Below are positions 15,144 to 33,363 of a stretch of DNA of 64,000 bases, one piece after another. The translations under genes were made by a program, and so were the position numbers. The notes under the pieces are model-generated. The model ran no database searches, was not told the origin of the DNA, and worked only from the letters and a program-made list of their open reading frames with translations. Origin of the DNA: Schwartzia sp. (in: firmicutes). Its GTDB lineage: Bacteria > Bacillota > Negativicutes > Selenomonadales > Selenomonadaceae. The stretch is from the NCBI GenBank assembly GCA_017383125.1, contig JAFNYY010000096.1, forward strand, positions 9,026-73,025, in the 5' to 3' direction. How positions within the stretch are numbered: the stretch's first letter is position 1; the number at the start of each line of letters is the position of its first letter.

Positions 15144-16925
15144 TCAGTGTTTTGTGTCGCTTATCGGCAGCGGAACCTTTTGACTCTGATTCAGTCTGTC
15201 TTTGGCGGCTGCCCGCTGGTCATATCCCGGCACCAGATAGGTGCTGAGAAGGGCCGGTCGGAATTTCAGCGGATCACCGTCTGCCCGCTTCTCATTTTCC
15301 GTCAGCAGGAGGTCCAGGGCTCTGGCCGTATATTTTGCCGAGGCAGTCATGTGCATGACGATTACGGAGCCGGAGCGAACCCGGTTTTTCCCATCGTAAA
15401 TTCCCGACTGAATTGCCCCCACCATTGCGCTGAGAATCGGCGACTTGTAATCGGTGGTGCTGGCAAAGCCGGAGACAATATAGGTAAAACCTGCATCGAA
15501 AATCGACTGTACGCCGTTCTTATTCAGTGCCAGCGTCGGCGGGCGCATAAGCCTGGTCAGCGGATGACGGCCATCCACTACCACATCACCTACCGTCATC
15601 GCCAGCTTCTCGTATGACTCCGCCACATCCTTGGCGTAGGTTTCCTTGTCCTGCATTGCCTCGGTGCGGCGAGTTTTTTCGTTGTACCGGGCCATCGCCT
15701 TGTGACCGTCGGTATGACTGGCTATATCGTGACCGTCCTGTGCAATAGCCCGCAGGAGGTTTGGATTGTTCGGCATATTCCAGGTGATTATGAAGAATGT
15801 AGCCGGCACATGATGCTTTCGCAGCACATACAGCAGCTTGTTTATGGAGTCATCGTTGCCCCAGTCATCGAAGGTAAGGAAAACCGTCCCCTCCGGCACA
15901 TTCTTAATGACGCCGGTCTTGTCCGCCTTTGCAATCTCCGCGGAGGAAAAGCCCAGCATACGGTCACCGCCGTCAACCGAGGGAGAGCCGATGTATCGCT
16001 TATAGAACTCCGTCTTCAGGTTTTCCCGGCTCACCGGCATGGCAATCGTCTCCGGCTTCAGCTCATAGGGCAGCTTATCCGGTGCCACAGGATAGTCGTA
16101 GAGTTTTCCCGAATTGTTCAGTACTTCCTGCAGTGATGCCGCCCGATAGGCCGAGTCGTTCTGCGGATTTCTCTCCGGCGTATCATCAAGGGACCGGTAA
16201 GCGATATTGTCAATCTTCTGATGCTTTACTGCCAGCATCATGTCCCCGGCCAGCGTCTCCTTTTCGTAAAAATCCGTGCGGATATAGACAATCTGCCCTC
16301 TGCCCAGAGAACGCACACCCTTGCCGAAAAGGGTTTCCATTACTTCCTCGGCGCTTTTTGCATTCTTGTCCTTTGTCCGCACCACATTTACGCTTTGGCC
16401 CATCAGCCGGCAGCCCATAGCGGACACCGCTTCAAACATGAAATCCTCGTTTGAGCCGGTCATTTCCCGAACAAGATTCGTATCTGTTCCATAGTCTTCG
16501 CTCAAAATGCTGCGGACGCGCTCTATCTGACCGCAGATGGAGTCAAAATCATCCGGCTTGTCGGCATCCTGACTTACTCTGATACCGATGGCCAGCTCGT
16601 GACCCCGGGATACAATCATGTCGATATTATCCCGGTTTCGCTCCAGCTCGCGTTCCGTGACAAAGAAGGTGCCGCGCATAGACTCCTCGTCCATTTTGTC
16701 CAGCACATATTCCAGAGCCCCGCGCTTGGACAAACCGCCGAAGGTAAAGACCACCGCCTGCTCCGTCGTATAGACGAAGCGCTGACGCTCTGCCTTGCGG
16801 CCTGCATTAGCCTGCCGTTCGGTGCTGTAGGCAGACTGTGCCTGAGCAAACGAGGCAGGCTGCATCGCCCATGACGAAAAGGTCAGGGTAAAGGCTGCCA
16901 ATCCTGCAGCAATCAATCTCTTCAT
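15144..16925 (-). CDS. Secreted tandem NodB-domain protein: degenerate first domain, intact second polysaccharide deacetylase domain
   Basis: The ORF is 15144..16955. The likely start is MKRLIAAG at 16925, with GGAGA 8 nt upstream. Domain 1 reads VVFTFGGLS...GHELAIG, so the DD and HxxxH motifs are lost. Domain 2 reads VFLTFDDWGND...GHDIASHTDGH, so both motifs are intact. Confidence 0.82.
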   Translation of the reverse strand: MKRLIAAGLAAFTLTFSSWAMQPASFAQAQSAYSTERQANAGRKAERQRFVYTTEQAVVFTFGGLSKRGALEYVLDKMDEESMRGTFFVTERELERNRDNIDMIVSRGHELAIGIRVSQDADKPDDFDSICGQIERVRSILSEDYGTDTNLVREMTGSNEDFMFEAVSAMGCRLMGQSVNVVRTKDKNAKSAEEVMETLFGKGVRSLGRGQIVYIRTDFYEKETLAGDMMLAVKHQKIDNIAYRSLDDTPERNPQNDSAYRAASLQEVLNNSGKLYDYPVAPDKLPYELKPETIAMPVSRENLKTEFYKRYIGSPSVDGGDRMLGFSSAEIAKADKTGVIKNVPEGTVFLTFDDWGNDDSINKLLYVLRKHHVPATFFIITWNMPNNPNLLRAIAQDGHDIASHTDGHKAMARYNEKTRRTEAMQDKETYAKDVAESYEKLAMTVGDVVVDGRHPLTRLMRPPTLALNKNGVQSIFDAGFTYIVSGFASTTDYKSPILSAMVGAIQSGIYDGKNRVRSGSVIVMHMTASAKYTARALDLLLTENEKRADGDPLKFRPALLSTYLVPGYDQRAAAKDRLNQSQKVPLPISDTKH

Positions 16926-16951
16926 AAAATCGTCTCCTAAGTATCCTCCGC

Positions 16952-17971
16952 TCACTTCACCCCAGCCAGGTTGAGATTGCCCCCAAGCCTCCAGATATTC
17001 ACCGACTTAATTCCGTTGGCTTCAATCTCATTGAGCCACATATTCAGTGTAGTCTCGTCGGCATACCAGACCTCGGTCTTTTGTCCGGCCCGGTTTCTGA
17101 AGGAAAAATGCAGAACTCCGCTGTCATCCTCACGAGCCGGCTTGGCTTCCTGCTCTTTTGCCATGGCCACTGCCTCAGCCTCGGTGATGTACTGCTTCTT
17201 CCCGCTTTCCTCCCACAGACAGCCGCCGGTGGAAACAGCGGCCTCCACATTACCCGGAAGCTGCCGCATCTTCTTCAGGGTCTTTGCAATGAAAGCAAAG
17301 TCCGCCTTCGGCCCCGGCCCGCTGTGCAAACCGTAGAGATTGTACAGCATCACAACATAATCCGGACCCTTGCAGTAATCAAGAGAAACATCTGCCGACG
17401 GCTCAAGCACCACCCGCAGCTTCAAATCATTCTTAACCGCCGCATACTGCAGCTTGGAAATCAGCCAGACGAACTTCTTCGCCAGTGCCTCGTCCTTGAA
17501 TACCCTTTCGTAGTCAAGCTCAATGCCGTTGAAGCCCTTTTCCTTCGTCAGCCGCACCAGCTCCGCCACATGAGCGTTCATTGACGGCTCATCCTTCAGC
17601 ACCCGCTGCAGGACAGCCAAATCCTTCTGCACTGCCGTCCCCTTACCGGGAACGAAATCATTGGTAAAGGAAAGATACTCTCCCGGCCGCTCCAGACTCC
17701 GGCTGCCCTTCAGCGACAGCAGAGAGTCCGGCACCACGATTTTATCGCCATCGGTAAAATAGGTGCGGAAATAAACCATCGACCGGAGGTCGTGCCTGAT
17801 TTTTTCCCCGTCCTCCCGGCCACTTTCCGCATCCCAGTCAGCAACCCAGGCCGTCATCAGCATCGGACCATGCTGACTGCTGTGGGGCTTGGCACTGCAT
17901 CCCGTGAGCATCAGCAGGCTGACTCCAGCCGCCAATGCCCCGGCAACTATCTTACTGTGCAAGCGTTTCAC
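16952..17971 (-). CDS. Lipoprotein with a GH18-like glycoside hydrolase signature
   Basis: 339 aa with the lipobox LMLTGC. GFNGIELDYE fits the GH18 G-F-(D/N)-G-x-x-x-D-(W/F/Y)-E catalytic strand. Confidence 0.6.
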   Translation of the reverse strand: MKRLHSKIVAGALAAGVSLLMLTGCSAKPHSSQHGPMLMTAWVADWDAESGREDGEKIRHDLRSMVYFRTYFTDGDKIVVPDSLLSLKGSRSLERPGEYLSFTNDFVPGKGTAVQKDLAVLQRVLKDEPSMNAHVAELVRLTKEKGFNGIELDYERVFKDEALAKKFVWLISKLQYAAVKNDLKLRVVLEPSADVSLDYCKGPDYVVMLYNLYGLHSGPGPKADFAFIAKTLKKMRQLPGNVEAAVSTGGCLWEESGKKQYITEAEAVAMAKEQEAKPAREDDSGVLHFSFRNRAGQKTEVWYADETTLNMWLNEIEANGIKSVNIWRLGGNLNLAGVK

Positions 17972-17992
17972 GCCGCACCATCCTTCCGTTGT

Positions 17993-19909
17993 TTACAAGT
18001 TAGTTATGAAAGCATCCAGCAGCTTCTCCCAGTATTCTTCTGCCTGCATCCGGTAAAGTTCCATGCCAACCGGCATCGCTGAGAACAGCTTCTGCTCTTC
18101 CTTTGCCTCCGGCGCGGGCACGGAAATCTCCAGTCCCTTGAATACGCCGTCATAGACATCATCGGCCAGATTGCGCTGGCTCCAGGCATCCTTATTCCAG
18201 CTGCCTTCAAAATAAATGCTGCCATTTTGTTTCACTCTGACTGCGGCATCGCGACAGATTTCCGTTCCGTCCATGGTGACGGTGAGCCTATCGCCCTGCA
18301 GGACAATATCCAGTGCTCTGTCCCCCCGGGAGTTTACCGGAATGGGCGGCACATACTCTTTTCCGCCCTCGGCCAAACTCTGTGCCGGCTCTTCGGCTCG
18401 CTTCGCTGCCTTGGCCAGATAGTACTGAGCCAACTCCGTGGACGGTGCATAGCGGGCAAAGGTCTCCAGCTCCTGCACCTCCACCGCTCTCTTATCCTCT
18501 GCCACCGAAACCGGCTCTACACCGTCCAGCTTCGTCAGCTTCGCCCGGAAAAGTTCGCGGTAATTTTCGTTGTCCAGCTCATTGACCACCAGCTGCCCGT
18601 TAGCCAGGCAGACACATACATAGTCCAGCATAGAATCGCTGGCCCGCAAATAAATTCTCTGATTACCGAATACATTGCCCTGCAGCCGGACCTTCAGATG
18701 AACATCTCCGAATTCCTCGCTGCCCTTCAGCCGGACCATGCCCTTGTTCTCCGGCTCGCTGGTGACGGTGAGGGTATCTCCGGTAAACTCCATCGCTCCC
18801 TGCAGCAAATCAAATTCCTCCGCCTTGGGAGATTTGCCGGTCTCAAAGGTAATGTACTGGTTTATATCGTGCTTTATCCGCATCAGCAGATGATTGGTGG
18901 ACCAGTGGGGCTGCGGCTGCATTCGGGTCAGGTCGTAAATGCTGGCGCCGCGCTGATTGAAGCAGTAGCCCTCACGATTGAAGTTCATCGTGAAAATCTC
19001 GCGAATCCACTTCTCATTCACATCGCTGACCTGCCGATTATTGCCGAAGGCACCGGTATTGGCGTGCATGATGGCATAGAGGCGGGGCACATAGTCAAGC
19101 TGCGTGGCATACAAATACCGGAGCCGCTCGTAGTCATAGCTGATGCGCCGCTTCATGTGGTTATAGCTTTCCTTCGGCTGCTCTTCCTTATCCCGTATGT
19201 AATCCATCAGATAATGATTGTACCGGTTCACAAGACAGCCGCGTAGCTTGGCAAATCTCACCGGGTCCAACTCGCCAAGGTAATTGCCGTGACGGTCAAA
19301 GACATTGATAAACTGCAGACGGTAGCCGTTGCTTCCCATCTCCCAGAAGGAAGTCCTCTCCAAATCCTTCAGCTCCTCCGGCGACAGGAACTTCAGATCC
19401 TTGTTGTCGAATTTTTCCGGATAGGTGAGCATTGTTGCCTTGAAGTTGTACTTCTCCAGAATTTTCTGAGCGAAAATCGCGGTATCCCGGCGTCCGTCCT
19501 CAAACATCAGGAAGAGGGAACGGTCCGGCAGACGCTTTCCTTCCTTATAGTATTCCTCGATGTCCGTCTGGGTGATTGTCACATAGCCCTGACGGTGCAA
19601 AGCGGCCAGATGCTGCTCCAGCACATCCTTGCCAATCAAATCCGACTTGTTTCCGATTCTGTCCACGCCGAAGTAGGACAGTGCAACAAAGCCGGTATCT
19701 GACATCCCCGGCTCCGCTTCCTCGTCCGCCTCAGCAGGAACATAAGTCCCGTGATGGAAAAGGCCCATCCAGACGACATAGGAAAATAAAGCCAGAATAA
19801 GCACCTGCAGAAGAGTACGAAATCTCTTCCGACGGTTTTTCCGCCTGGTATATTTATGGTCTCCGATGACAACTGCAGCGTTTTCCTTTTTATCCATTCT
19901 GCCTGTCAC
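17993..19909 (-). CDS. Membrane-anchored NodB-like protein with C-terminal jelly-roll (lectin/LamG-like) repeats
   Basis: 638 aa with an N-terminal TM segment (LLQVLILALFSYVVWMGLF). The deacetylase-like segment is GFVALSYFGVDR...SLFLMFEDGRRDT. The C-terminus has two beta-rich repeats. The start is ambiguous: GTG at 19909 or ATG at 19897, and both overlap the end of the upstream gene. Confidence 0.6.
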   Translation of the reverse strand: MTGRMDKKENAAVVIGDHKYTRRKNRRKRFRTLLQVLILALFSYVVWMGLFHHGTYVPAEADEEAEPGMSDTGFVALSYFGVDRIGNKSDLIGKDVLEQHLAALHRQGYVTITQTDIEEYYKEGKRLPDRSLFLMFEDGRRDTAIFAQKILEKYNFKATMLTYPEKFDNKDLKFLSPEELKDLERTSFWEMGSNGYRLQFINVFDRHGNYLGELDPVRFAKLRGCLVNRYNHYLMDYIRDKEEQPKESYNHMKRRISYDYERLRYLYATQLDYVPRLYAIMHANTGAFGNNRQVSDVNEKWIREIFTMNFNREGYCFNQRGASIYDLTRMQPQPHWSTNHLLMRIKHDINQYITFETGKSPKAEEFDLLQGAMEFTGDTLTVTSEPENKGMVRLKGSEEFGDVHLKVRLQGNVFGNQRIYLRASDSMLDYVCVCLANGQLVVNELDNENYRELFRAKLTKLDGVEPVSVAEDKRAVEVQELETFARYAPSTELAQYYLAKAAKRAEEPAQSLAEGGKEYVPPIPVNSRGDRALDIVLQGDRLTVTMDGTEICRDAAVRVKQNGSIYFEGSWNKDAWSQRNLADDVYDGVFKGLEISVPAPEAKEEQKLFSAMPVGMELYRMQAEEYWEKLLDAFITNL

Positions 19910-22295
19910 CGTCCTTTTCCTTCAATTCCTCCGCCTTCCTTTTCTTCATGGCGCTGTCAATGCTTACCACATTCCCAGCCCCTTTGTTTTTCTCAGTCTT
20001 CCTTCCTGCGGCGGCCCGCTCCGCCATTTCGACGGCTCTCTGGAGAGTCTCCTGCTTCAGCGTCTTTTCCCGCCGTGCTGCCAAAGGCTGGTAAACGACT
20101 ACCGCTACCAGCTTTTTCATTTTCAGTGGCTTTATCCGCTGTACCGGCCGTGCCGTCTGTTCATCGGCAGACTCAGCAGCTTCAGCCTCGGAAGAGTCTT
20201 CAGTCGGCTCGACCTGCTGGACAGGCTCAGTTTCCTCAGTCTGTGCAGCTTCTGTCACCGACATATCTTCCGCCTCTTCGGGAATTTCGGCAGCTTCAGT
20301 TTCAGCCGCCGTTTTTGCTTCCTCGACATCGTTTTCCCCGGCAATGATTTCTTCTTCCGGTTCCTGCTTTGTCACTGCTGCTCCGGCCGCTGCTGCCAGC
20401 GGCTCCTCGGCCTTCACCGGTTTAGCTTCTTCAGCCGCGGCAGTATTCATCTCGGCCTTTGCTTCTGCTTTTATCTCCGCCTTTTGCGTATCTGCCTTTG
20501 CCTCGCCCTTCTTATCGGCCTGCAGCTCAGCAAGGTCAGCCGGCGTCATTCTGGTACCCCAGGTAGACTTCCAGAAGGTGAACCAGGCGATAGGCATCTG
20601 CCACAGCAGAACGGCCTCATAATAAATGCAGAACCAGATTCCGTAGGCCCAGGTAGTACTGCGGCGCAGGAAAAGCTGTGCCATACTCATCAGGGATGCC
20701 ATCATTACCATTCCGATAAGGAAGGTGGTGGGGAAAACCCGATGCAGCAGCGGCACATAAACAAGATTGTACAGTACGATGATAGGCGCCAAAATCGGTA
20801 CGGCAAGACCCATGTAGAAGCACAGGGACATGAAAGGCTCCTTGCGCCACATATACTTTGCCCCGATAAGAGACTCTCTGAGCCAGGAGCGCTTCCAGCG
20901 CATCTGCTGCTTCAGGAACATCTTGTGGGTATTTGGAACGATGGTGGAACAGACAGCAGTATCCTGATAAGTAGTCCTGTTATGCCGCAAAATAAAATTC
21001 GTCATTGACCGGTCATCACCGAAGGTTGCCCTCTGACCGAGGAATTTTTGATTCAGCCAGTCATCGGCATACTTCAGAACGAGATCCTTGCGATAGCAGG
21101 AAAGCGGACCGGACAGACAGGTAACCGCGTCGAAATAGCCCTCGGCCGCTTTCATTACCCGGAAGGCGATATAATAGCGGACTGACTGCATCTTCGTCAG
21201 CGCGTTTGTGTAGGTATTGGCTACATCGGTACGGCCGGAAACGCCGCCCATCTCTTCGTCCTTAAAAGGCTGGACAATATTGCGGACAGCGAAGGGGTCA
21301 AGGAAGCTGTCGGAATCTACAAATACCAGCAGCTCATGCTTTGCCAGCTTCGCACCTACCGCCATGGCCTCACGCTTGCCCTGGTTGACCGGCTGCACAT
21401 AGTAGTTCAGACGCTCGGCCACATTGTACCGGTCGCCCTCTGCCTTCAGCCGTTCGATTATTTCCTTGATTTTCTCTACCGAGCGGTCGGTAGAGCAGTC
21501 ATCCACTACCATGACCTCCAGCTTCTCCGCCGGATAATCCTGATTGATACAGCTCAATATCGTCCGCTGTATCCACTCCTCTTCATTGAAGCAGGGAACT
21601 ATGACGGTAACACCGGGAGTGAAATCCGGATCAATCTCCACCGGCCGATAGAAAATTGCAAAGAGGTAACGGCTCAAAAGGAAAATTGCCGCGATAATAC
21701 TGTAGAAGTAAAGGAATTTGTTGAACTCAAAATAAATTACCGACTCGGCCCTCATCAGCACGATAATGAGGGTAACAAGCAACAGGAAGCAGGAAGCAAC
21801 GCCCAGCATATAGCGGCCCCGCTTGCGGTTCACATAATGGGACAAAATCTCATCAAACTGGAAAGCGTAGCCCATCGTTCCGTCCGGAAACTCGACCACA
21901 CGGACACAGTGAGCCCCCAGCTTCCTGACATTCATCTCATAGCCTTCGACCATAGACCCCGGCGTTATTTCAAAATCCAGCTTTGCGGCACTGCCCTCTT
22001 TGAGCACTGCCGTCTTCTCCTCCGTGCAGACCATTATGCCGCTTCCGGATATATCCTTTGCTACGGAGGAAATCTTGAACTCCCGACCCACCTTATTGCG
22101 AACCCTGACGGTCACCGGAAAGTCAACAATATAGCGCTGCCCTTCCTTTTCGCTGTTGATATAGTCGCGAAAATCCCGAATCTCAACATCGTTGTGGCGG
22201 CGATCACGGTTGCTTCTCTGCTGCTCGCCGTCCGGAACATGGGAAAGGAGACGCCTATCATGTTTTTCTTTTAATACTATGTCCTCAATACTCAA
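19890..22295 (-). CDS. PilZ domain fused to a class I hyaluronan-synthase-like processive GT2, with a long acidic disordered C-terminal tail
   Basis: 801 aa. The N-terminus has DISGSG (DxSxxG), with KEGQR 27 aa upstream and an Arg-rich stretch RSNRDRRHNDVEIRDFRD further upstream. The GT2 core motifs are VVDDCSTD, FVDSDS, SGPLSCYR, FGDDRSMTN, KQQMRWKRSW (QxxRW) and TWGTR. The last roughly 230 aa are E/A/K-rich low complexity. Confidence 0.85.
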   Translation of the reverse strand: MSIEDIVLKEKHDRRLLSHVPDGEQQRSNRDRRHNDVEIRDFRDYINSEKEGQRYIVDFPVTVRVRNKVGREFKISSVAKDISGSGIMVCTEEKTAVLKEGSAAKLDFEITPGSMVEGYEMNVRKLGAHCVRVVEFPDGTMGYAFQFDEILSHYVNRKRGRYMLGVASCFLLLVTLIIVLMRAESVIYFEFNKFLYFYSIIAAIFLLSRYLFAIFYRPVEIDPDFTPGVTVIVPCFNEEEWIQRTILSCINQDYPAEKLEVMVVDDCSTDRSVEKIKEIIERLKAEGDRYNVAERLNYYVQPVNQGKREAMAVGAKLAKHELLVFVDSDSFLDPFAVRNIVQPFKDEEMGGVSGRTDVANTYTNALTKMQSVRYYIAFRVMKAAEGYFDAVTCLSGPLSCYRKDLVLKYADDWLNQKFLGQRATFGDDRSMTNFILRHNRTTYQDTAVCSTIVPNTHKMFLKQQMRWKRSWLRESLIGAKYMWRKEPFMSLCFYMGLAVPILAPIIVLYNLVYVPLLHRVFPTTFLIGMVMMASLMSMAQLFLRRSTTWAYGIWFCIYYEAVLLWQMPIAWFTFWKSTWGTRMTPADLAELQADKKGEAKADTQKAEIKAEAKAEMNTAAAEEAKPVKAEEPLAAAAGAAVTKQEPEEEIIAGENDVEEAKTAAETEAAEIPEEAEDMSVTEAAQTEETEPVQQVEPTEDSSEAEAAESADEQTARPVQRIKPLKMKKLVAVVVYQPLAARREKTLKQETLQRAVEMAERAAAGRKTEKNKGAGNVVSIDSAMKKRKAEELKEKDGDRQNG

Positions 22296-22321
22296 CCTGA
22301 TACATCCTCACTCTTCCCTGC

Positions 22322-23461
22322 TTAATCTTCAGCAGGTTCCTCCGGCTCCCCTTCTTCGGGGACATCCTCCTCCAACGGTTCACCTTCTTCGGAGCTGCCG
22401 TTATCCGTCGGTGCGCCCTCTTCTGAGGCACCGCTTTCTGCCGGTGTTCCCGTCTTGGTGGCAACATTCCCCGCAGGTTTCCCCTGTGCGGGGACACCGT
22501 TTTCCGGCACGGCCTTCGGAGCGCCTTCTTCAACCTCCATCGGAGCGACCGGAATATACTTGATTTTTGAGAAATAATTTACATCCGCGAAGACAACGCC
22601 CTTTTTGTCAAAGGCCGTCAGAATATATTCAAGGCGCTCGGCGAAATTTGGCCCGCTGCTTCCGGCTGCCTTCTGCACCGTCGAATCCTTGATTGTCGGC
22701 TTCTTATCGATTGCTGGTCTCTGTTCGCGAGGGACAGCCGCTTTAGCCGGCGGCTCCACCGTAAGACCTAGCTTCATGGACAGGATGCTGCCGTTAGGTA
22801 CGCTGAGTGCAAAATTATCGGCATCGGCCTGACTGTTAATCGTCGCCATGTCGATATAGACATTTGCTCTCACCGCCGCTTCCAGCCCGCAGGCATTGAC
22901 TGCCTTCAGCACATCCGGCGTATAAACGGTGCGGTTGGCCATGAACAGCTTCGGTGCCGTACCGGTCTGCGCCCGGATAACCTTCTGTGTCCTGCACAGC
23001 TCACCGATTATCTTGGTTATTGGTTGTCTGTCCAGACGGCTGGCACCAACGAAAGTATAATTGCCCAGGGGAAAACCGCCCTCGGTAATCAGCTTGATGG
23101 TCTCATCTTCCTCTGCCGCATTCATGCCTTCGGCAAAGAAAACGGCGTTTGCCTTATGCTTCGTCAGGCAATCCACAATCTGTGCCGTCATCACCCTGTC
23201 AGGCAGACCTTCCACCACCAGCGCTACCTGCGGCAGTTCATTGCGGTTGGCCACAATGACAAGAGCCGGCTCCGGATGCTCAATGATTTTTTCCCTCGCT
23301 GCCGCGATTTCATCATCAGCCTGCCAGAACATATCCAGCTCGTTTATGCCGCCGGGTATGTCCGCCTTCTGAGCGAAATCTTCCCACGGCGCCCACCAGT
23401 AAATCAAACCGCAGACCACGGATATGATTACGGTGTAAAGCATTTTTATCTGGAAATTCAA
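22322..23461 (-). CDS. Membrane-anchored NodB-like protein with degenerate catalytic motifs and an acidic Pro/Glu-rich tail
   Basis: The ORF is 22322..23539. The likely start is TTG at 23461, 6 nt after GGAGAA and just after the dehydrogenase's TAA; ATG at 23443 is the alternative. The fold-like segment is VALVVEGLPDRVMTAQIVDCLTKHKANAVFFAEG, with no TFDD or HxxxH. The tail ends ...EEGEPLEEDVPEEGEPEEPAED. Confidence 0.6.
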   Translation of the reverse strand: MNFQIKMLYTVIISVVCGLIYWWAPWEDFAQKADIPGGINELDMFWQADDEIAAAREKIIEHPEPALVIVANRNELPQVALVVEGLPDRVMTAQIVDCLTKHKANAVFFAEGMNAAEEDETIKLITEGGFPLGNYTFVGASRLDRQPITKIIGELCRTQKVIRAQTGTAPKLFMANRTVYTPDVLKAVNACGLEAAVRANVYIDMATINSQADADNFALSVPNGSILSMKLGLTVEPPAKAAVPREQRPAIDKKPTIKDSTVQKAAGSSGPNFAERLEYILTAFDKKGVVFADVNYFSKIKYIPVAPMEVEEGAPKAVPENGVPAQGKPAGNVATKTGTPAESGASEEGAPTDNGSSEEGEPLEEDVPEEGEPEEPAED

Positions 23462-23471
23462 GATTTTCTCC

Positions 23472-24785
23472 TTACAAACTCCAAACCCGGAAGTCCTGCT
23501 GGGCCAGGCTGCTGCTGTCAAACATACTCTTGACATCAATCAGCAGCTTTCTGCCGTCGGTCTTTTTATAGAGCTGCTTGAGCTGCTCCGCCGAAAGATT
23601 GCGGAACTGCTGATGCGCCACGAGGAAAACAAGACAATCCGCATCCTTCACCTCATCCAGTGAAGTAAGCTCGATTCCGTATTCCTTGGCGAAGATTTCC
23701 CGGTCGGCCACCGGGTCGACCGCCGTCAGCTTCAGTCCCATTTCCGCCAATTCGTTGTAAACATCCACAGCCCGGGAGTTGCGGGTATCGATGCAGTCCT
23801 CCTTGAAGGTCATGCCGCAGAGTACCACATTGGCCCGGCTGACATCTATTCCTTCCACAATCATTTCTCTGACGACGGAACGAGCCACAAATTCGCTCAT
23901 GCCGTCATTAATCCGGCGGCCTGCCGCGATAAGCTGAGAATGGTACCCCAGCTTCTCTGCCTCGTAAATGAAATAGTAAGGATCAACGCCGATGCAGTGA
24001 CCGCCTACCAGACCGGGACGGAAGCCCAGAGCGTTCCACTTCGTATTCATGGCCTCAACGACCTCATGGGTTGAGATACCCATTCTGTTAAAGGCCATGG
24101 CCAGCTCATTCATAAAAGCAATGTTAATGTCCCGCTGAGAATTTTCCGCTACCTTGGCAGCCTCGGCCACCTTGATGCTGCCGGCACGATGAACACCGGC
24201 TTCGATAATCAGACTGTAGACATTTGCCACCAGCTCCAGAGTTGCCTCATCCATGCCGGAAACAATTTTCACGATATTTTTCAGACGATGCACCGGGTCT
24301 GCCGGATTGATACGCTCCGGCGAATAACCGATGAAGAACTCACTGCCCAGCTGCAAGCCGGATTTCTCCGCCAAAATCGGACCGCAGACATCCTCCGTAA
24401 CTCCGGGATAAACGGTGGACTCAAAGACAACCACCGTATCCTTCTTCATATTTGCGCCCACCAGAGCCGAGGCACTTCTGATAGGCTCAAGGTCCGGCGT
24501 CTTATCACCATTTACCGGAGTAGGTACCGCAACGATGATGAAAGCCGCTTCCTGCAGAGCAGCCGCATCAGAGGTAAACTCCACTCCGCTGCAGCGCACC
24601 GCCTCGTCACCGGCTTCCTGTGTCGGGTCAATACCGGCCTTATACGCAGCAATCTTCTCCGCATTCAAGTCGAAGCCTATTACCCGGAAATGCTTTGCAA
24701 AGGCAACTGCCAGCGGCAAGCCCACATAGCCAAGCCCTACTACAACCAAAGCTCTTTTTCTTTCTGTCAGTTCATCGAAAATCAT
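23472..24785 (-). CDS. NAD-dependent UDP-aminosugar 6-dehydrogenase (WbpO/TviB/CapL-like nucleotide-sugar dehydrogenase)
   Basis: 437 aa. VVGLGYVGLPLAVAFAKHFRVIGFDLNAEKIAAYKAGIDPTQE, YSPERINP, AENSQRDINIAFMNELA and GLVGGHCIGVDPYY match my recollection of the WbpO/TviB subgroup rather than HasB/Ugd. Confidence 0.7.
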   Translation of the reverse strand: MIFDELTERKRALVVVGLGYVGLPLAVAFAKHFRVIGFDLNAEKIAAYKAGIDPTQEAGDEAVRCSGVEFTSDAAALQEAAFIIVAVPTPVNGDKTPDLEPIRSASALVGANMKKDTVVVFESTVYPGVTEDVCGPILAEKSGLQLGSEFFIGYSPERINPADPVHRLKNIVKIVSGMDEATLELVANVYSLIIEAGVHRAGSIKVAEAAKVAENSQRDINIAFMNELAMAFNRMGISTHEVVEAMNTKWNALGFRPGLVGGHCIGVDPYYFIYEAEKLGYHSQLIAAGRRINDGMSEFVARSVVREMIVEGIDVSRANVVLCGMTFKEDCIDTRNSRAVDVYNELAEMGLKLTAVDPVADREIFAKEYGIELTSLDEVKDADCLVFLVAHQQFRNLSAEQLKQLYKKTDGRKLLIDVKSMFDSSSLAQQDFRVWSL

Positions 24786-24813
24786 TTCACTAACCCACCT
24801 AATTCATAAGGTA

Positions 24814-26556
24814 TCAGCTATGATAAAAGAAGGACAAGGCCAGCCAAACCGTATTGTTAATCCGGTTGGTGGTCATTTCCTTTAAGTGATCAAATTCCAG
24901 CGTAGCCATCAGATTTTTCACCAGAGTACGGGTCACGCCGATGCCCCAGCCCCTGAAGCCGTTCATCCTGTCCGCCACACCGTTCATGGTGTGCTGTACA
25001 TAGGTGGCCCGGGGCTGATGATAATACTTCAGATAGTATGAAGTGCGTCCCGGCTCCTCGCTCCAGGGAGTACCGTGCTGCAGTGTAAGCACATATCCGT
25101 TGCCGTTCCCCACATAACTGTCGCGGCCCATAAGGAACATTGCCCCGAAATCGAACTGACGGCCCAATGGCACATGACCGTTCAGCATATAGATATTCCG
25201 CCGTCCGCCGCCGTTCATGCCAAATCCGAAATATCCGGCCTCCAGACTGTATTTACCCGGCACTGCATATCCGGCGGTAAAGGTGGCTACATTCCTTGCC
25301 GAGTTTACTGAGCCGTACCGGGCCGCGAAATTTATTTTATCGCCGCCCTCCAGCATCATGCCCTTGAAGCTGCTGTCGTAGACATTGCCCTCTGCCATGG
25401 TGGCGCCCATCTTGCCCGCAGTAGCCCGGACCGCTCCCACATTACCGGTCAGATAATAGCGCTCCAGTCTGAGCCAGTGGTCATCTCCGGAGCCGGACAG
25501 ATTCTTTTCCGACTCCACCATAGCAACGGCATGCCAGTTTCCGTCAATATTATAGTCACCGTAAAGACGGTTTCTCAGACGCAGTCTCTTATCATTAGAG
25601 ACATCACCGTTGTCATTTTTGTAGTCAAGTCTCAGCTCACCGTTGAGATTGAAGCGCCGCGCCTCTTTTACAGAGCTTTCCCAAGCCTCCTGATTGCGGG
25701 CCTGAGCCTGAGCCGCTTCATCCTCAAAATAGCCAAGCTCCTGCAGCTCGGTTCCCAGCTTTGCCCGAAGCCTGCCGGCTGCCCGAATATACTTATCGTC
25801 GATGTCGGGATATTTTCCCTCATCCATTTCCAAAAGAAACGCGGCCGTTTTCTCCGCCGCTTCTTCACGGCTGAGTGTTCTCGGAGATTTTCCCTCCAAA
25901 TCAATGAAGCCGCCCTCGGCCAAAGTCTCCAGCTCCAGACTGTCGGTGAAATCCACCTTGTCCTGCTCCGCCATGTCCCGGAGGTAAGCAGCGGCGTATT
26001 CCTCAGCCGCCTCCTTCAGCTTCTCACGGCAGCGGTTCACTTTTTCGTTCAGAGCAACGACCTCGTCCATCTCATCGCCGGGCTTATTGGTGCTGCTGTA
26101 GAGCCGGTATACTTTCCGCTGGAGCTTGCGGGAAAGTTTCTCCGTCCGCTTCTCCAGTTCCTCCAGTTCCGCAGACGCGGGAGTCTTCTTTGCCGGGTTT
26201 GTATTTGCCGTGCCTCTGCCGTTCTGCAAAAGCTCATCCTGATGCTTTTCCCATTCCTTCAGAATCATTTCCCGCTGCCGGACATTCTGTTCCAGTTTTT
26301 CCTTTCGGCTCAGCCGATCTTCCGGCACATTCTTTTCCTTTGCCAGCTTTTTGGTAACATTTTCCAGTTTCTTCTTCAGTACCTTGTAGCGGCCCTCATC
26401 TTCTGCCCGCAGAGCCGTCGTCTCGGCATATTCCTGTGCCGCCCTCTGGGCTCTGCTGTCCTTTGGGGGCTGTATCGTTTTATCTCTCGTTGCAGCGGCG
26501 GTACACGCCAGAAGCGTGAATACACCCAAAAGTGCCGCAATCTTTCGCTTGTTCAT
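24814..26556 (-). CDS. Outer-membrane protein: signal/lipobox-like N-terminus, about 280 aa coiled-coil region, C-terminal beta-barrel-like domain. Candidate polysaccharide export porin.
   Basis: 580 aa. The N-terminus ends in TLLAC. The first half is highly charged with heptad-like repeats. The last roughly 270 aa show an alternating hydrophobic/polar strand pattern (RFNLNGELRLDYKND, RLRLRNRLYGDYNIDGNWHAVAMVE, WLRLERYYLTGNV, ...NTVWLALSFFYHS). It is the first gene of the EPS operon. Confidence 0.55.
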   Translation of the reverse strand: MNKRKIAALLGVFTLLACTAAATRDKTIQPPKDSRAQRAAQEYAETTALRAEDEGRYKVLKKKLENVTKKLAKEKNVPEDRLSRKEKLEQNVRQREMILKEWEKHQDELLQNGRGTANTNPAKKTPASAELEELEKRTEKLSRKLQRKVYRLYSSTNKPGDEMDEVVALNEKVNRCREKLKEAAEEYAAAYLRDMAEQDKVDFTDSLELETLAEGGFIDLEGKSPRTLSREEAAEKTAAFLLEMDEGKYPDIDDKYIRAAGRLRAKLGTELQELGYFEDEAAQAQARNQEAWESSVKEARRFNLNGELRLDYKNDNGDVSNDKRLRLRNRLYGDYNIDGNWHAVAMVESEKNLSGSGDDHWLRLERYYLTGNVGAVRATAGKMGATMAEGNVYDSSFKGMMLEGGDKINFAARYGSVNSARNVATFTAGYAVPGKYSLEAGYFGFGMNGGGRRNIYMLNGHVPLGRQFDFGAMFLMGRDSYVGNGNGYVLTLQHGTPWSEEPGRTSYYLKYYHQPRATYVQHTMNGVADRMNGFRGWGIGVTRTLVKNLMATLEFDHLKEMTTNRINNTVWLALSFFYHS

Positions 26557-26783
26557 AATACTTCTCCAAGAAACCTAATACTATTGTCCTATAATTTCCG
26601 ATTACATCATCCGGGCCTATGCACTACTATCAGCGCAGTCACTGCTCCATTCAAAACCGGTACGGTTCTTCTTACGGCTCCGTATGATAATCAGTCGGTT
26701 TCATCTTGACTTGTACAGCATTATCGCGCTGTACAACTTATCTATATTAAACCACTAACGCTAAATAATTTCAACTGTTTTAC

Positions 26784-26811
26784 ATTATTAGAAAACAATG
26801 TTTTCTGTCAA
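26784..26811 (-). promoter_or_regulatory. Candidate sigma70 promoter of the EPS operon, with a palindromic operator filling the spacer
   Basis: The minus strand reads TTGACA (26811-26806), a 16 nt spacer, then AATAAT (26789-26784). The spacer contains the perfect palindrome GAAAACA-A-TGTTTTC (26791-26805). The predicted leader to the ATG at 26556 is about 220 nt. Confidence 0.45.
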
Positions 26812-26968: not shown

Positions 26969-27682
26969 TTATAGTGTTATCCCTGTTGCCCGGACAATCG
27001 CCGCGGCAATGGCAAAATACGGCCCGTAGGCGAAGAACTCATCCTTCTTTTTCTTCGTGACTATCAGCAGCACCGCCGCCGCCAGGCCCCCAAGAATGAA
27101 GCCGAAGGCCACTGCCGATGAAGTATACCCTGCTCCCAGCCACATTCCCAATGCCGTTATCAGTTTAATGTCCCCGCCGAAAATACTGCCTTTAAGCACG
27201 ACCGCCAGCAAAAGCATTATGCCTCCGGCCGCCAGACCAGTAAGCAGCGACTCCAAGGGTTCCGGCGGCGGCACCGGCATACCGGGAGGCAGTGCCAGAC
27301 AATCGGGCATATACGATTTCAGAAGCGACTGAACGATACCAGCCGCCGCCAAAAACATAACCGCCGAATCAAAAATAATATACTGTTCCCAATCTGTAAT
27401 CGAAATAAACAGAAGGGTCAGATAAAAGCAAAGATTAAAAATTCCTGCCGCCGGATATGAAGTATCAACCCCAAAATAAGCAGCTGCACATCCGACAAAA
27501 AGCAGCGGCAGGCGCAAAACGGCCCTGCTCCTCTTTTCCTCCGGAAAGCTCAATTCCGTTTTTTCGCGGCTGTACAATAGGTCTATCAACCTAGAAAGCC
27601 CGACAGTTGTTATTCCCGCCAGAGCTGCCGTCAATATTATACGCAGCACAAACATCACCCAAAAATAAATATTTAATATCAC
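26969..27682 (-). CDS. tadV: A24-family prepilin peptidase (TadV/CpaA-like)
   Basis: 237 aa polytopic membrane protein. It has the GGDIKLITALGMWLG motif and an upstream ITD aspartate motif. It is divergent from the tad operon. Confidence 0.85.
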   Translation of the reverse strand: MILNIYFWVMFVLRIILTAALAGITTVGLSRLIDLLYSREKTELSFPEEKRSRAVLRLPLLFVGCAAAYFGVDTSYPAAGIFNLCFYLTLLFISITDWEQYIIFDSAVMFLAAAGIVQSLLKSYMPDCLALPPGMPVPPPEPLESLLTGLAAGGIMLLLAVVLKGSIFGGDIKLITALGMWLGAGYTSSAVAFGFILGGLAAAVLLIVTKKKKDEFFAYGPYFAIAAAIVRATGITL

Positions 27683-27743
27683 AATAAAACATCAACAGCC
27701 CGTAGTCAACCTCATATTACTGACGATAAAATAAAAAAAACTG

Positions 27744-27772
27744 TTGAGAAAATTTAGAAAGACTTCTATAAT
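27744..27772 (+). promoter_or_regulatory. Candidate sigma70 promoter of the tad operon
   Basis: TTGAGA (27744-27749), a 17 nt spacer, then TATAAT (27767-27772). An A-tract (ATAAAATAAAAAAAA) lies upstream. The cpaB start is 75 nt downstream. Confidence 0.5.
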
Positions 27773-27846
27773 GGTTATATACTTGTAAAAATAGCTTTAT
27801 CTATCATAAAGTCGGTACTAAAATTCACATAAGGACGTAGTAAATT

Positions 27847-28779
27847 ATGCCTAAAAACGTGCGTGACATATTCAAGCAATTAAGTGACAAGCTTACATAC
27901 AGACACTGGATGATTATTGCCGGCGTTGTAAGCTGTATTTTGGGAATCCTCGTATACCTGTCGCTGGGCAGCGACTCGACGGATAATAAATCCCCCGTCC
28001 AGCTGCCCCAAAAGAAGATGGTCTGGGTTCTGGCCGCAAATAAAAACATCCCGCCCAGAGCCACCATTCAGGAGAATATGCTCACTCTTGTGGAGCTTCC
28101 CGAAGAATCTGTTCCGGAGGGTGCTCTATCCGACATAAAGGCAGTGAACAACCACCCCGCCGCCGTCATCATCATGAAGGGCGATATCATCACGAAGCAA
28201 AAGCTTATGAGCGATCCCAAAATGGCCGGCTTCACGGGAACAATCCCCCCCGAATGCCGTGCGATTTCCGTCGGTATCAGTGATGTGACCGGTGTGGCCG
28301 GCTTTGCCGCTGCCGGTGATTATGTCGATGTCATGGTTGTAACCGGCCGGAAGGAAGAAGGCCAGCTCGTAGGCAAGCTGGTACTGCAGAATGTCCTCCT
28401 TCTCGGCATAAACAAATCCGGCAGCGGTGCCAATGAAAAGCCCGCCAAACTGGACAGCGATAAAAACCAGGACAACTCCATCAAGGCCGCCAAAGAAGCA
28501 ATGGCTACCGCTACTCTGGCTCTGACTCCGGAGGACGCCCTGCAGCTTGCTACTACCGCACAAAACGGCGTCGTTTATCTGGCCCTGCGTCCATACAAGC
28601 CTAAGGAAGAGGTCGTCGTCGCTCACGACTATGTTGTTCATACCGAAAGGTCCGTTGAGCCGAGAAGGCCCTTACGGCCTCAGACCTCCGCACCTGCCGC
28701 CCGTTATCCGGCATCGTCCTCAGGCGGCTCAGTCGAAGTCATCAGAGGTACAACTGCCACAAGGGAAGGAGGGCGCTGA
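27847..28779 (+). CDS. cpaB: Flp pilus assembly protein CpaB/RcpC (SAF domain)
   Basis: 310 aa with an N-terminal TM segment. It has a SAF-like segment (VLAANKNIPPRATIQENML) and an RcpC segment (ISVGISDVTGVAGFAAAGDYVDVMVV). Confidence 0.85.
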   Translation: MPKNVRDIFKQLSDKLTYRHWMIIAGVVSCILGILVYLSLGSDSTDNKSPVQLPQKKMVWVLAANKNIPPRATIQENMLTLVELPEESVPEGALSDIKAVNNHPAAVIIMKGDIITKQKLMSDPKMAGFTGTIPPECRAISVGISDVTGVAGFAAAGDYVDVMVVTGRKEEGQLVGKLVLQNVLLLGINKSGSGANEKPAKLDSDKNQDNSIKAAKEAMATATLALTPEDALQLATTAQNGVVYLALRPYKPKEEVVVAHDYVVHTERSVEPRRPLRPQTSAPAARYPASSSGGSVEVIRGTTATREGGR

Positions 28780-28781
28780 TA

Positions 28782-30143: not shown

Positions 30144-30153
30144 GATAAAGAAG

Positions 30154-30993
30154 GTGAAGGACATGATAGAGGATAAAATCAGTGGTGTCGTCATTACCTT
30201 TTTCAGCACCGCTTCTGCTGTCGGCAAAACCCTTATCAGTATAAATATGGCTGCCGAGCTGGCCAGACAGGGCTATCGTGTCTGTCTGGCTGATTTCGAC
30301 CTGCAGTTCGGCGATGTAGCAAATTATCTGCAGATGCAGGGTTCCACTACTGTTTACAATGCAGGTCAGCGACTTGCGGAAAACAGTGACTACCCACTGG
30401 AGGAGCTTGCCTCCGTGTGCACCTACAACGATGTAAGCTTCGGCGTCCTCGCTGCTCCGGAGGAGCTTTCACAGGCCTACAACTTTACCGCTGACACGGC
30501 CGAGCGGATAGTGAACCGCCTCCGGATGCACTATGACTATGTCATTATCGACACCACATCCATGTTCAGCGTGCTGAACCTTACTCTGCTTGATTTAAGT
30601 ACAATCATCACCTTCCTTGGGGTTGTCGATTTCATCCCGACCATAAAGAACATGAAAATCGGCAACGAAACTCTGCAGTCCCTTAACTACGACGCAAATA
30701 AAATCCGTCTGGTGCTGAACCGCAGCGACTCAGCTACGCAGCTCAGCATCCGGGAAGTCGAAGAAAAGACACTGGGCAGCTCCTTTTATCATGTCCTTTC
30801 CAATGATTTCCATGCCGCCAACGAGTCAGTCCAGACCGGGATCCCCCTCGTTCTCCGCAAGAACAACAATCAGCTGACAAAGGATTTGCGGCAGCTGGTT
30901 GCCCTCTATACGAATCATACCTATCAGGAAGACGCCGATTTTGACGAACCGACCCGAAAGTCCGGTGGCTGGTTCTCGAAGCTCTTTAGCTGA
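30154..30993 (+). CDS. ParA/MinD-like ATPase, TadZ/CpaE paralog without a receiver domain
   Basis: 279 aa. The P-loop region is VITFFSTASAVGKTLISINMAAELARQG. GTG 30154 or ATG 30163 could be the start. Confidence 0.7.
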   Translation: MKDMIEDKISGVVITFFSTASAVGKTLISINMAAELARQGYRVCLADFDLQFGDVANYLQMQGSTTVYNAGQRLAENSDYPLEELASVCTYNDVSFGVLAAPEELSQAYNFTADTAERIVNRLRMHYDYVIIDTTSMFSVLNLTLLDLSTIITFLGVVDFIPTIKNMKIGNETLQSLNYDANKIRLVLNRSDSATQLSIREVEEKTLGSSFYHVLSNDFHAANESVQTGIPLVLRKNNNQLTKDLRQLVALYTNHTYQEDADFDEPTRKSGGWFSKLFS

Positions 30994-31006
30994 GGTGGTT
31001 TAAGCT

Positions 31007-33096: not shown

Positions 33097-33117
33097 GACT
33101 TTAGGGAGGTATGGAAA

Positions 33118-33312
33118 ATGAAAAAATTCATGGAAAAGTATCTTGGCAAAAAGGGTCAGGGAATGGTTGAGTACGCTCTGATTATTGCATTCGTTGTCGG
33201 TATTGCTGCTGTCGCATTCGGCGGTGAATCCGGTCTCGGCAAAGCAATTAAGGACACCTTCACAAAGGCAACTACCACTCTGAACACCCTTGCCGGCAAC
33301 AAAACGACCTGA
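33118..33312 (+). CDS. flp: Flp-family type IVb prepilin
   Basis: 64 aa. MKKFMEKYLGKKGQG/MVEYALIIAFVVGIAAVAF has the G/xxxxEY Flp processing motif and a hydrophobic helix. Confidence 0.9.
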   Translation: MKKFMEKYLGKKGQGMVEYALIIAFVVGIAAVAFGGESGLGKAIKDTFTKATTTLNTLAGNKTT

Positions 33313-33363
33313 TAAAGCAACTATATTATTGAAGGATAACGGGAACGAGTTGTCCTCCAAAAA

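Follow-up and report, generated by a model that had tools for sequence, protein, structure and literature searches.

A conserved seven-gene operon around a PilZ-fused glycosyltransferase in Selenomonadaceae, a probable c-di-GMP-controlled exopolysaccharide system

What does a cluster of seven consecutive genes in Schwartzia sp., a diderm Firmicute of the rumen or gut, make, and how is it controlled? The cluster lies in a 64,000-nucleotide stretch of contig JAFNYY010000096.1 (NCBI GenBank assembly GCA_017383125.1, positions 9,026 to 73,025 of the forward strand); this whole stretch is called the window here, and positions are counted from its first nucleotide (nt). An original prediction, made from the sequence alone, had described the cluster as an exopolysaccharide (EPS) locus organized around a PilZ-fused synthase. 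We conclude that it is probably a synthase-dependent operon for the biosynthesis and export of an EPS, an aminosugar polymer, under the control of cyclic di-GMP (c-di-GMP). Our best guess at the product is a beta-linked polymer of N-acetylglucosamine (GlcNAc), with or without N-acetylglucosaminuronic acid (GlcNAcA), that is partly de-N-acetylated. The system is conserved across hundreds of related species, is apparently undescribed, has an unusual parts list, and plausibly makes a new polymer. The host had been taken for a diderm Firmicute, and the window indeed matches the Selenomonadaceae metagenome-assembled genome (MAG) JAUNIB010000003 (Negativicutes) with 97% over the synthase.

The operon and its synthase

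The open reading frames of the window include seven consecutive ones on the minus strand (region 15144-26556; Table 1). Independent gene calls on four metagenome contigs with an identical synthase returned the same seven genes with the same starts, and the three genes with ambiguous starts were called with lengths of 379, 634, and 593 amino acids (aa). The six junctions measure +28, +10, +26, -8 (an overlap), +21, and +26 nt, distances that are usual within operons. The seven genes are a real operon, and the gene number, strand, and coordinates given by the original prediction were borne out, as was every one of its domain calls when Pfam, NCBIfam, AlphaFold2/Foldseek, and profiles were applied.

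Table 1. Features of the operon and its surroundings, with positions in the window
Feature	Position	Strand	Basis
Outer-membrane protein, putative exporter	24814-26556	-	AlphaFold2, Foldseek
Coiled coil/long helices of this protein (residues 34-198)	25963-26457		AlphaFold2
SLH-like motif of this protein (residues ~207-245)	25830-25950
16-strand beta-barrel of this protein (residues 302-579)	24820-25653		AlphaFold2
TviB/WbpO/WbpA-type UDP-N-acetyl-aminosugar 6-dehydrogenase	23472-24785	-	Pfam, NCBIfam
Membrane-anchored, catalytically degenerate CE4 (NodB-fold) protein	22322-23461	-	Pfam
Acidic low-complexity tail of this protein	~22322-22550
PilZ-GT2 synthase	19890-22295	-	Pfam, NCBIfam, PDB
Arg-rich segment and PilZ barrel of the synthase (residues ~10-150)	21846-22268
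Transmembrane/GT2/channel core of the synthase (residues 216-585)	20541-21650
E/A/K-rich tail of the synthase (residues 600-801)	19893-20498
Single-pass membrane partner, 638 aa	17993-19909	-	AlphaFold2, Foldseek, profile
PgaB/IcaB-like CE4 fold of the partner (residues 70-350)	18860-19702
Concanavalin-like jelly roll of the partner (residues 366-610)	18080-18814
GH18-family lipoprotein, putative polymer hydrolase	16952-17971	-	Pfam, orthologue profile
Secreted tandem CE4 protein	15144-16925	-	Pfam, NCBIfam
Intact C-terminal CE4 domain of this protein	~15276-15902
Promoter-like site TTGACA-16 nt-AATAAT	26784-26811	-	Consensus scan, 11/12 matches
Perfect 9+9 inverted repeat TTGTACAGC-N8-GCTGTACAA	26711-26736	.	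Repeat scan
Tad/Flp pilus locus, complete	26969-38054
PAS-GGDEF-EAL-PAS protein, 973 aa	38242-41163	-	Pfam EAL 7.5e-67, GGDEF 2.4e-17, PAS

The synthase matches the Pfam families PilZ, Glycos_transf_2, and Chitin_synth_2. Its N-terminal arginine-rich segment and PilZ barrel are followed by a transmembrane, glycosyltransferase family 2 (GT2), and channel core with the motifs DD, DxD, GDDR, QQMRW, and WGTR, and by a low-complexity C-terminal tail of ~200 residues. DD265-266, D327xD329, GDD426-428, and Q463QMRW467 are invariant in 15 homologues, and the conservation of the motifs was also checked in 81 sequences. The motifs together with the channel helices are those of the processive membrane-embedded GT2 enzymes of synthase-dependent EPS systems.

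To place the synthase relative to HasA, NodC, PgaC, and BcsA, we used scores against curated hidden Markov models together with PDB matches. Its best PDB matches are the class I hyaluronan synthases (HAS) 8smm and 7sp7 (E ~1e-34, 114-120 bits), and Xenopus HAS1 and Chlorella virus HAS are its best solved relatives (E 3e-34 and 8e-34). The alignment with HAS spans the motifs GDDR-x-(L/M)TN, QQxRW-x-(K/R)S, and WGT(R/S) residue by residue and includes the C-terminal transmembrane region, so that the sequence signature of class I hyaluronan synthases is present. The scores against named families all lie below the cut-offs: 171.7 bits (cut-off 550) for the NodC model TIGR04242, 107.4 bits (cut-off 422.3) for the PgaC/IcaA model TIGR03937, and 31.7 bits (cut-off 699) for the CelA model. 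BcsA was matched in the PDB with E 1e-5 and 27 bits, and over the N-terminal part of the GT2 only. These scores place the synthase in the branch of HAS, NodC, and chitin synthases, outside every named family, in line with the prediction that it is HasA-like and not PgaC- or BcsA-like. The E/A/K-rich tail is missing from most homologues; a shorter version occurs in P0002 (86% identity).

NodC is the top NCBIfam model for the synthase, and NodB models match the deacetylases of the operon, which would suit a NodBC-style system that yields no polymer but short chito-oligosaccharides, built by the GT2 and modified by the NodB-like proteins. We consider such a system very improbable. The NodC score is less than a third of the cut-off, and the alignment of the synthase with HAS extends over the channel helices at the C terminus and the gating motif WGTR. 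Moreover, the dedicated outer-membrane barrel (with tetratricopeptide repeats [TPR] in Sporomusa), the hydrolase, and the lectin-like partner in the periplasm are parts that characterize the secretion of polymers.

The conservation of the operon was followed by scanning one genome per species for relatives of the synthase. Such relatives were found in 399 stretches of species-representative genomes, and the best 80 of these were taken with 10-kb flanks and annotated by phmmer with the window proteins; the number of evaluable loci varies per component. The 638-aa partner lies immediately downstream of the synthase in all 72 evaluable loci, a GH18 protein was found near it in 70 of 70, and a CE4 protein in 80 of 80. 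The dehydrogenase was found in 59 of 69 and the outer-membrane barrel in 41 of 49. The synteny that had been expected was thereby confirmed, as the gene set recurs in 80 species-level loci.

Three layouts can be distinguished. Layout A, the seven-gene order of the window, occurs in Selenomonas, Mitsuokella, Megamonas, and contigs labelled Megasphaera or Dialister. In layout B (Sporomusa, Pelosinus, Propionispora, Anaerospora, and Pectinatus), one fused gene (~880 aa) upstream of the synthase takes the place of the two deacetylase genes. Layout C, in contigs labelled Lachnospiraceae, Oscillospiraceae, and Clostridiaceae, is a four- or five-gene core that keeps PilZ but lacks the barrel and, in most cases, the dehydrogenase. 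Every evaluable Negativicutes-labelled locus has the barrel, and the 8 evaluable loci that lack it are labelled Lachnospiraceae, Oscillospiraceae, Clostridiaceae, or unclassified Bacillota. The barrel thus follows the diderm and monoderm labels, as expected of an outer-membrane exporter.

The carriers comprise rumen and gut Selenomonas, Mitsuokella, and Megamonas, oral Selenomonas, Pectinatus and Megasphaera, which are biofilm-forming beer-spoilage bacteria, the electro-active genera Sporomusa and Pelosinus, and the Lachnospiraceae- and Oscillospiraceae-labelled contigs. Three loci labelled Anaerotignum, Bacteroides, and Acholeplasmataceae (L008, L068, and L073) have an operon of the Negativicutes or Clostridia type, in L073 with the barrel; they are probably mis-binned MAG contigs, and taxon labels therefore need care. 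In Selenomonas ruminantium ATCC 12561 (L024), a second, distant pairing of a GT2 (430 aa, 57 bits) with a protein (615 aa, 25 bits) that resembles the 638-aa partner lies upstream of the operon on the opposite strand, the minus strand, and may be a paralogous synthase-partner module.

Precursor supply, chain processing, and export

The dehydrogenase has all three UDPG_MGDP_dh Pfam domains and the catalytic cysteine motif GGHCIGVDP. Among the NCBIfam models it scored 428.5 bits with TviB, 207 bits with UDP-N-acetylmannosamine (UDP-ManNAc) dehydrogenase, and at most 153 bits with UDP-glucose dehydrogenases. The TviB score is below the equivalog cut-off of 592, yet twice that of any other subfamily model, in keeping with the original WbpO/TviB-like call. 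It is predicted to convert UDP-GlcNAc to UDP-GlcNAcA.

Deacetylase-like domains occur in three of the gene products. The membrane-anchored CE4 protein matches Polysacc_deac_1 (E 1.7e-12) with all catalytic motifs substituted: TFDDGP reads VVEGLP, HSxxH reads GNYTFVG, and LxH reads MKL. Its orthologue is fused to the tandem deacetylase in Sporomusaceae and Clostridia. The protein ends in an acidic P/E/G-rich tail that most orthologues do not have. The product of the last gene contains two Polysacc_deac_1 stretches (106 bits) and is also matched by the PdaB, NodB, and PgdA models. Its N-terminal CE4 domain is degenerate (TFGGL), and the C-terminal domain is intact (TFDDWG, HTDGH, RPP, and VMH). 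This C-terminal domain is the sole one with the five CE4 motifs; they are incomplete in the membrane-anchored protein, in the N-terminal domain of the tandem protein, and in the PgaB-like domain of the partner. Of the operon's five CE4-like domains, just one looks active by these motifs.

The gene of the 638-aa partner overlaps the end of the synthase gene. In the AlphaFold2 model (pLDDT 78, pTM 0.75), a transmembrane helix (residues 18-50) is followed by a CE4 fold like that of PgaB and IcaB, a concanavalin-like jelly roll, and a C-terminal helix. The single sequence gave a weak NodB/PgaB match in its N-terminal part with Pfam and NCBIfam. A profile of 27 homologues found the PgaB N-domain in the PDB (5.6e-8), and Foldseek found the same domain (3vus, E 2e-10) as well as the carbohydrate-binding module CBM66 (4b1m, E 4.5e-7, template modelling [TM] score 0.73). 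Since WEMGSNGYRL stands in place of E-x-G-x-H-S-x-x-H, with both metal-binding histidines replaced, the PgaB-like domain is probably non-catalytic. A PL7-type lyase would suit a uronic polymer; this assignment of the jelly roll was rejected, as PL7 gave TM scores of 0.15/0.36 and a root-mean-square deviation of ~16 Å versus a TM score of 0.73 for CBM66, and a sequence E value of 0.3.

The lipoprotein, with the lipobox LTGC, matched the Pfam GH18 family as a single sequence with E 1.7e-5, below the cut-off. A profile of 19 orthologues matched YdhD (3cz8, 8e-18) and SleL/YaaH, with E values from 8e-18 to 1e-14. Its GH18 motif reads (D/N)G-x-(E/D)-x-D153-x-E155, and D153 and E155, the M-x-Y-N motif, and the terminal tryptophan are invariant in the 19 orthologues, so that the catalytic residues of GH18 are in place. 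Catalytic motifs are thus intact in the GT2, the GH18 (D-x-E), one CE4 domain, and, with the cysteine, the dehydrogenase. Cleavage by GH18 enzymes depends on an N-acetyl group beside the scissile bond, at subsite -1, and GlcNAc is the residue on which CE4 enzymes act; both points speak for a backbone that contains GlcNAc.

The product of the first gene belongs to no Pfam or NCBIfam family. It has an N-terminal signal peptide or lipobox, and an AlphaFold2 model built from 25 homologues (mean pLDDT 76.5, about 90 in the barrel) shows a coiled coil or long helices and a C-terminal 16-strand beta-barrel. A Foldseek search, which had been proposed for this 580-aa protein, gave OmpM1 of Veillonella parvula as top PDB match (8bys, E 2e-16, TM score on target 0.74-0.79) at a sequence identity of about 20%, with general porins next. 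In OmpM porins, an N-terminal S-layer homology (SLH) domain and a coiled-coil stalk precede a 16-strand barrel. Of these, the coiled coil and the barrel were modelled in the window protein, and SLH appeared solely in the relatives, as a weak profile match to 8bz2 (E 0.0076). An SLH-like motif, G-[YF]-I-D-L...LSR-x-E-x-A, follows the coiled coil in the window and its three closest relatives. It is N-terminal, before the coiled coil, in other Selenomonadaceae orthologues (P0125-P0169), and the shift looks like a domain rearrangement; Pfam found no SLH domain in seven orthologues. A reading of the barrel as a homologue of PgaA, BcsC, or AlgE was rejected, because no such structure is among the listed Foldseek matches.

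The orthologues in Sporomusa differ in their periplasmic part. In Sporomusa malonica (L028:2563-5895), the product of the first gene has ~1100 aa, with TPR at residues 234-531 and homology to the window barrel at residues 827-1110 (138 bits). TPR together with a 16-strand barrel is the exporter architecture of PgaA, BcsC, and PelB. The sequences point to a periplasmic module that is swapped between lineages, TPR in Sporomusa versus coiled coil and SLH-like motif in Selenomonadaceae. The outer-membrane barrel of the synthase-dependent EPS class is hence present in both, and the TPR is missing in the window and present in the Sporomusa orthologue. The view that the exporter has no TPR or PgaA-like architecture holds for the window and not for the family, and with the Sporomusa orthologues the system comes nearer to the PgaA/BcsC layout than the prediction had it. 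A role as exporter is assigned putatively because of synteny, taxonomy, and the Sporomusa TPR fusion. TPR-barrel products of ~1100 aa are also encoded by the first gene in L031, L045, L055, L057, L061, and L077. In L080, labelled "uncultured Veillonellaceae," a second barrel gene and a second tandem deacetylase gene directly follow the seven-gene operon.

c-di-GMP control and the weighing of the alternatives

The PilZ domain of the synthase was matched by Pfam at residues 53-150 with 25.7 bits, above the cut-off of 22.5. In 81 of 81 sequences, (D/N)81-x-S83-x-x-G86 is conserved, which corresponds to the (D/N)xSxxG motif, and five arginines of the PilZ region are 100% conserved in the same sequences; by position, full conservation is seen at G52, R54, D13-R14-R15, R27, and R32-R33. 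Further evidence came from the leaders of orthologous operons. In all nine layout-B loci scanned with Rfam, a c-di-GMP-I riboswitch (RF01051) was found with 59-84 bits (cut-off 35), on the coding strand and directly upstream of the operon's first gene in these Sporomusaceae-type loci. A covariance model that we built from these matches and ran on the loci found the riboswitch in 18 loci, all of the Sporomusaceae type, and in none of layout A, layout C, or the window. The riboswitches in 18 orthologous leaders support c-di-GMP control independently of PilZ. Carriers of the riboswitch are Sporomusa, Pelosinus, Propionispora, Anaerospora, and Massilibacillus (e.g., L028:2325-2417, L035:4101-4195, and L037:4167-4262, plus 15 further loci). 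In the window itself, a GGDEF-EAL gene and a Tad pilus locus near the operon form a local c-di-GMP context.

Taken together, the parts suggest the following mechanism. In the cytoplasm, the TviB-type dehydrogenase would convert part of the UDP-GlcNAc pool to UDP-GlcNAcA. The inner-membrane PilZ-GT2 enzyme, whose family is established by the matches described above, would polymerize a beta-linked GlcNAc-based chain and extrude it through its own channel, and in loci with the dehydrogenase GlcNAcA would probably be built into the chain. On the model of BcsA, c-di-GMP bound to the N-terminal PilZ domain would switch the synthase on. The 638-aa partner, whose translation is coupled to that of the synthase, most likely takes up the growing chain on the periplasmic side and guides it there, as BcsB does. 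Partial de-N-acetylation of the chain would be carried out by the C-terminal CE4 domain of the last gene product, the three degenerate CE4 domains probably serving for chain binding only, and the GH18 lipoprotein would trim or release the chain like BcsZ, PgaB-C, and PelA. The polymer may then pass the outer membrane through the OmpM-like 16-strand barrel. The product would be a chitin-like polymer, partly deacetylated and possibly zwitterionic, that serves as matrix or capsule in adhesion and in the formation of biofilms.

Several observations weigh against this reading of the locus. In the PilZ domain the RxxxR motif is not contiguous: it is interrupted by an insertion of ~18 residues, the invariant D31-R32-R33 sits ~20 residues upstream of R54, and the residue at position i-4 to R54 is K in only 39 of 81 sequences. 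With the motif split and K at the first arginine position in this minority, c-di-GMP binding is not assured. A riboswitch in the window leader (~228 nt) had to be dismissed, since Rfam and our own c-di-GMP-I model were both empty there. For the dehydrogenase, the best PDB matches are UDP-ManNAc dehydrogenases, with no TviB or WbpO structure among the PDB matches, and this result and the sub-cut-off NCBIfam score hold the substrate call at the subfamily level. The GH18 lipoprotein groups with YdhD and SleL, and the known enzymes of this subgroup have spore peptidoglycan, not chitin, as their substrate. None of the 50 listed Foldseek matches of the barrel is a solved EPS exporter; the barrel resembles general porins and the outer-membrane tether OmpM. 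In 10 of 69 loci no dehydrogenase lies within 10 kb, so that the core machine can do without a uronic acid. Finally, we infer the polymer, its linkage, and its composition from the genes alone.

As to the split motif, distant PilZ-GT2 relatives from a 50%-identity library have contiguous versions right before the first strand (DRRGAIRY, DRRRAPRF, and ERRHHKRF), and the family of the window appears to carry an insertion of ~18 residues inside DRRG...G-x-RY. Because this insertion keeps all arginines, the alignment suggests that the split-motif PilZ domain may retain c-di-GMP binding. Of the predicted N-terminal PilZ module, the domain call stands, and the RxxxR motif proved to be non-canonical.

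The loci without a dehydrogenase bear on the nature of the polymer. Mostly Clostridia-labelled, they have a four-gene core of CE4, PilZ-GT2, partner, and GH18, and would fit the same machine making a neutral or cationic homopolymer of GlcNAc and glucosamine, similar to chitin/chitosan or to poly-N-acetylglucosamine (PNAG), with no uronic acid; the dehydrogenase would then supply another glycan or decorate the polymer in some lineages only. The N-acetyl requirement of GH18, the action of CE4 enzymes on GlcNAc, and the fold of the partner, which is that of the PNAG deacetylases PgaB and IcaB, agree with such a homopolymer. Nevertheless we consider it unlikely, as the dehydrogenase gene lies inside the operon, flanked by the exporter gene and a deacetylase gene, in 45 of the 47 barrel-bearing loci with sufficient flank, and the synthase scores far under the PgaC/IcaA cut-off. 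In addition, a triad of synthase, dehydrogenase, and deacetylase also occurs in fungi and chloroviruses (PMC5122149). The aminouronic precursor that had been predicted agrees with the probable subtype of the dehydrogenase, and the acidic sugar itself may be an accessory, lineage-specific feature.

The likeness of the barrel to the outer-membrane attachment porin OmpM1 raises another explanation, in which the locus serves the cell envelope. Its glycopolymer would then be, for example, a capsule or a secondary cell-wall polymer linked to an OmpM-type tether between outer membrane and peptidoglycan, and not a conditional biofilm matrix. Relatives with the N-terminal SLH-like motif and the weak match to 8bz2 are in line with it, and the nearest relatives of the GH18 and CE4 proteins are peptidoglycan and spore-cortex enzymes (YdhD, SleL, PdaB, and PgdA). 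We regard this explanation as improbable, because the riboswitches in the 18 leaders and the PilZ fusion speak for conditional control linked to a sessile lifestyle, and TPR repeats replace the SLH/coiled-coil module in Sporomusa. Furthermore, there is no Veillonella among the best 80 of the 399 stretches, so that the locus is not universal in Negativicutes.

We therefore prefer the c-di-GMP-controlled synthase-dependent EPS operon. A more far-reaching version of it is possible, although we are inclined to doubt it: the locus might be the founding example of a Firmicutes-wide family of synthase-dependent secretion systems that makes a new beta-linked GlcNAc/GlcNAcA "chitin-uronic acid," a partly de-N-acetylated zwitterionic polymer, under two-level c-di-GMP control (by riboswitches and by the split-RxxxR PilZ domain), exports it in diderm Firmicutes through a repurposed OmpM-type porin, and is the bacterial counterpart of orphan clusters in fungi and chloroviruses.

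Leader, neighbourhood, and comparison with known systems

The original prediction had placed a promoter and a palindromic operator in front of the operon. Both sequence features are real, and neither is supported by conservation. The promoter-like site lies ~228 nt upstream of the first start codon. In the closest relative, L006 (97% identical; L006:5330-5745), the spacer (window 26790-26805) contains an 11-nt insertion, CTACGGGGAAA, which makes it 27 nt long in the one relative and 16 nt in the other and leaves the promoter function uncertain. The inverted repeat in the 5' leader is genuine (one match versus none expected in shuffles) and could be a protein operator or an RNA hairpin. It is confined to loci and contigs of the same species, so that conservation cannot support a function, and the operator reading was given up. 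No Rfam match was obtained for the whole window at gathering thresholds or for the leader at E values up to 5.

The operon is abutted by the Tad locus, which includes an A24 prepilin peptidase, RcpC, a secretin, two ParA/TadZ-like proteins (one with a receiver domain), a TadA ATPase, two T2SSF proteins, and TadE and TadG-like proteins. The A24 prepilin peptidase gene is on the same strand as the operon, 412 nt upstream. Adjoining the Tad locus, 11.7 kb from the operon, is the gene of the PAS-GGDEF-EAL-PAS protein of c-di-GMP turnover, which might locally supply or remove c-di-GMP for both adhesion systems. Among the compared loci, the adjacency of Tad locus and EPS operon was seen in this species only, and a conserved functional unit of the two was therefore rejected.

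We know of no matrix polysaccharide system for diderm Firmicutes, and a literature search found none; the operon would fill this gap. No description of the bacterial operon was found in the full-text literature, in agreement with the claim that the combination is not a described system; most subscription journals lie outside that coverage, so that the absence is no proof. A 2020 survey of synthase-dependent EPS operons mentions neither Negativicutes nor GH18 (PMC7112194). If the proposed function is correct, the operon would provide the first pairing of a c-di-GMP effector with its output in Negativicutes, a polymer chemistry that is new and of interest for biomaterials, a functional clue to the unexplained clusters of synthase, UDP-GlcNAc 6-dehydrogenase (UNGD), and deacetylase in fungi and giant algal viruses, and a natural experiment in which one EPS machine gains or loses its outer-membrane exporter across the monoderm/diderm divide.

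Among known systems, pgaABCD/icaADBC shares with the operon a processive membrane GT2, a CE4 de-N-acetylation needed for the mature polymer, a dedicated glycoside hydrolase, and c-di-GMP control, which is probable in the operon. The PgaB/IcaB-type fold recurs in the window partner, and the outer-membrane 16-strand barrel is TPR-fused in Sporomusa as in PgaA. Unlike in that system, the window synthase is no PgaC/IcaA equivalog and has a fused N-terminal PilZ domain in place of the PgaC-PgaD interface, the hydrolase is a GH18 instead of a GH153, a UDP-GlcNAc 6-dehydrogenase is added, and the window exporter has a coiled-coil/SLH-like module instead of TPR.

The class I HAS and the has operon (hasA-hasB) have in common with the window the motifs GDDR, QQxRW(K/R)S, and WGT(R/S) and a nucleotide-sugar 6-dehydrogenase in the operon. 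The hyaluronan system uses UDP-glucuronic acid and UDP-GlcNAc as substrates, with a UDP-glucose dehydrogenase as partner. The window dehydrogenase is instead of the TviB/WbpO type, predicted to act on UDP-GlcNAc, and deacetylases, a GH18, an outer-membrane exporter, and PilZ are added; the wrong dehydrogenase subtype and the deacetylases exclude a hyaluronan system. With BcsA-BcsB-BcsZ-BcsC the operon shares a GT2 with a PilZ domain (in the operon a predicted gate), a periplasmic hydrolase, an outer-membrane barrel, and a single-pass periplasmic partner with jelly-roll carbohydrate-binding domains whose gene adjoins that of the synthase. It differs from Bcs in the N-terminal position of PilZ and its split RxxxR, in a GT2 distant from BcsA, and in the aminosugar substrates.

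As regards enzymes, the closest parallel comes from fungi and chloroviruses, where one conserved cluster joins a HAS-like (CHS8-type) chitin synthase to UNGD and a polysaccharide deacetylase; what it makes is presumed to resemble chitin and to include GlcNAcA (PMC5122149, PMC4059230, PMC7053769). The window has the same triad of enzymes. These eukaryotic and viral clusters lack PilZ, a GH18 partner, an exporter, and c-di-GMP. OmpM1 of V. parvula resembles the first gene product in the coiled-coil stalk before a 16-strand barrel and in the SLH-like motif; the window gene differs in being dedicated to an EPS operon, in lacking a Pfam SLH domain, and in having the motif after the coiled coil. The NfrB-NfrA system of Escherichia coli, a c-di-GMP-controlled poly-ManNAc synthase system (PMC8669469), comprises a GT2 fused to a c-di-GMP receptor domain, the role predicted for PilZ in the window, and, like the operon, a dedicated outer-membrane protein and a dedicated UDP-aminosugar-converting enzyme, although its receptor is a C-terminal MshEN domain, its precursor enzyme is the epimerase WecB, and it has no deacetylases and no GH18. 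Functionally, the operon is a synthase-dependent EPS system akin to Pga, Bcs, Pel, Alg, and Nfr, and not a categorically new machine.

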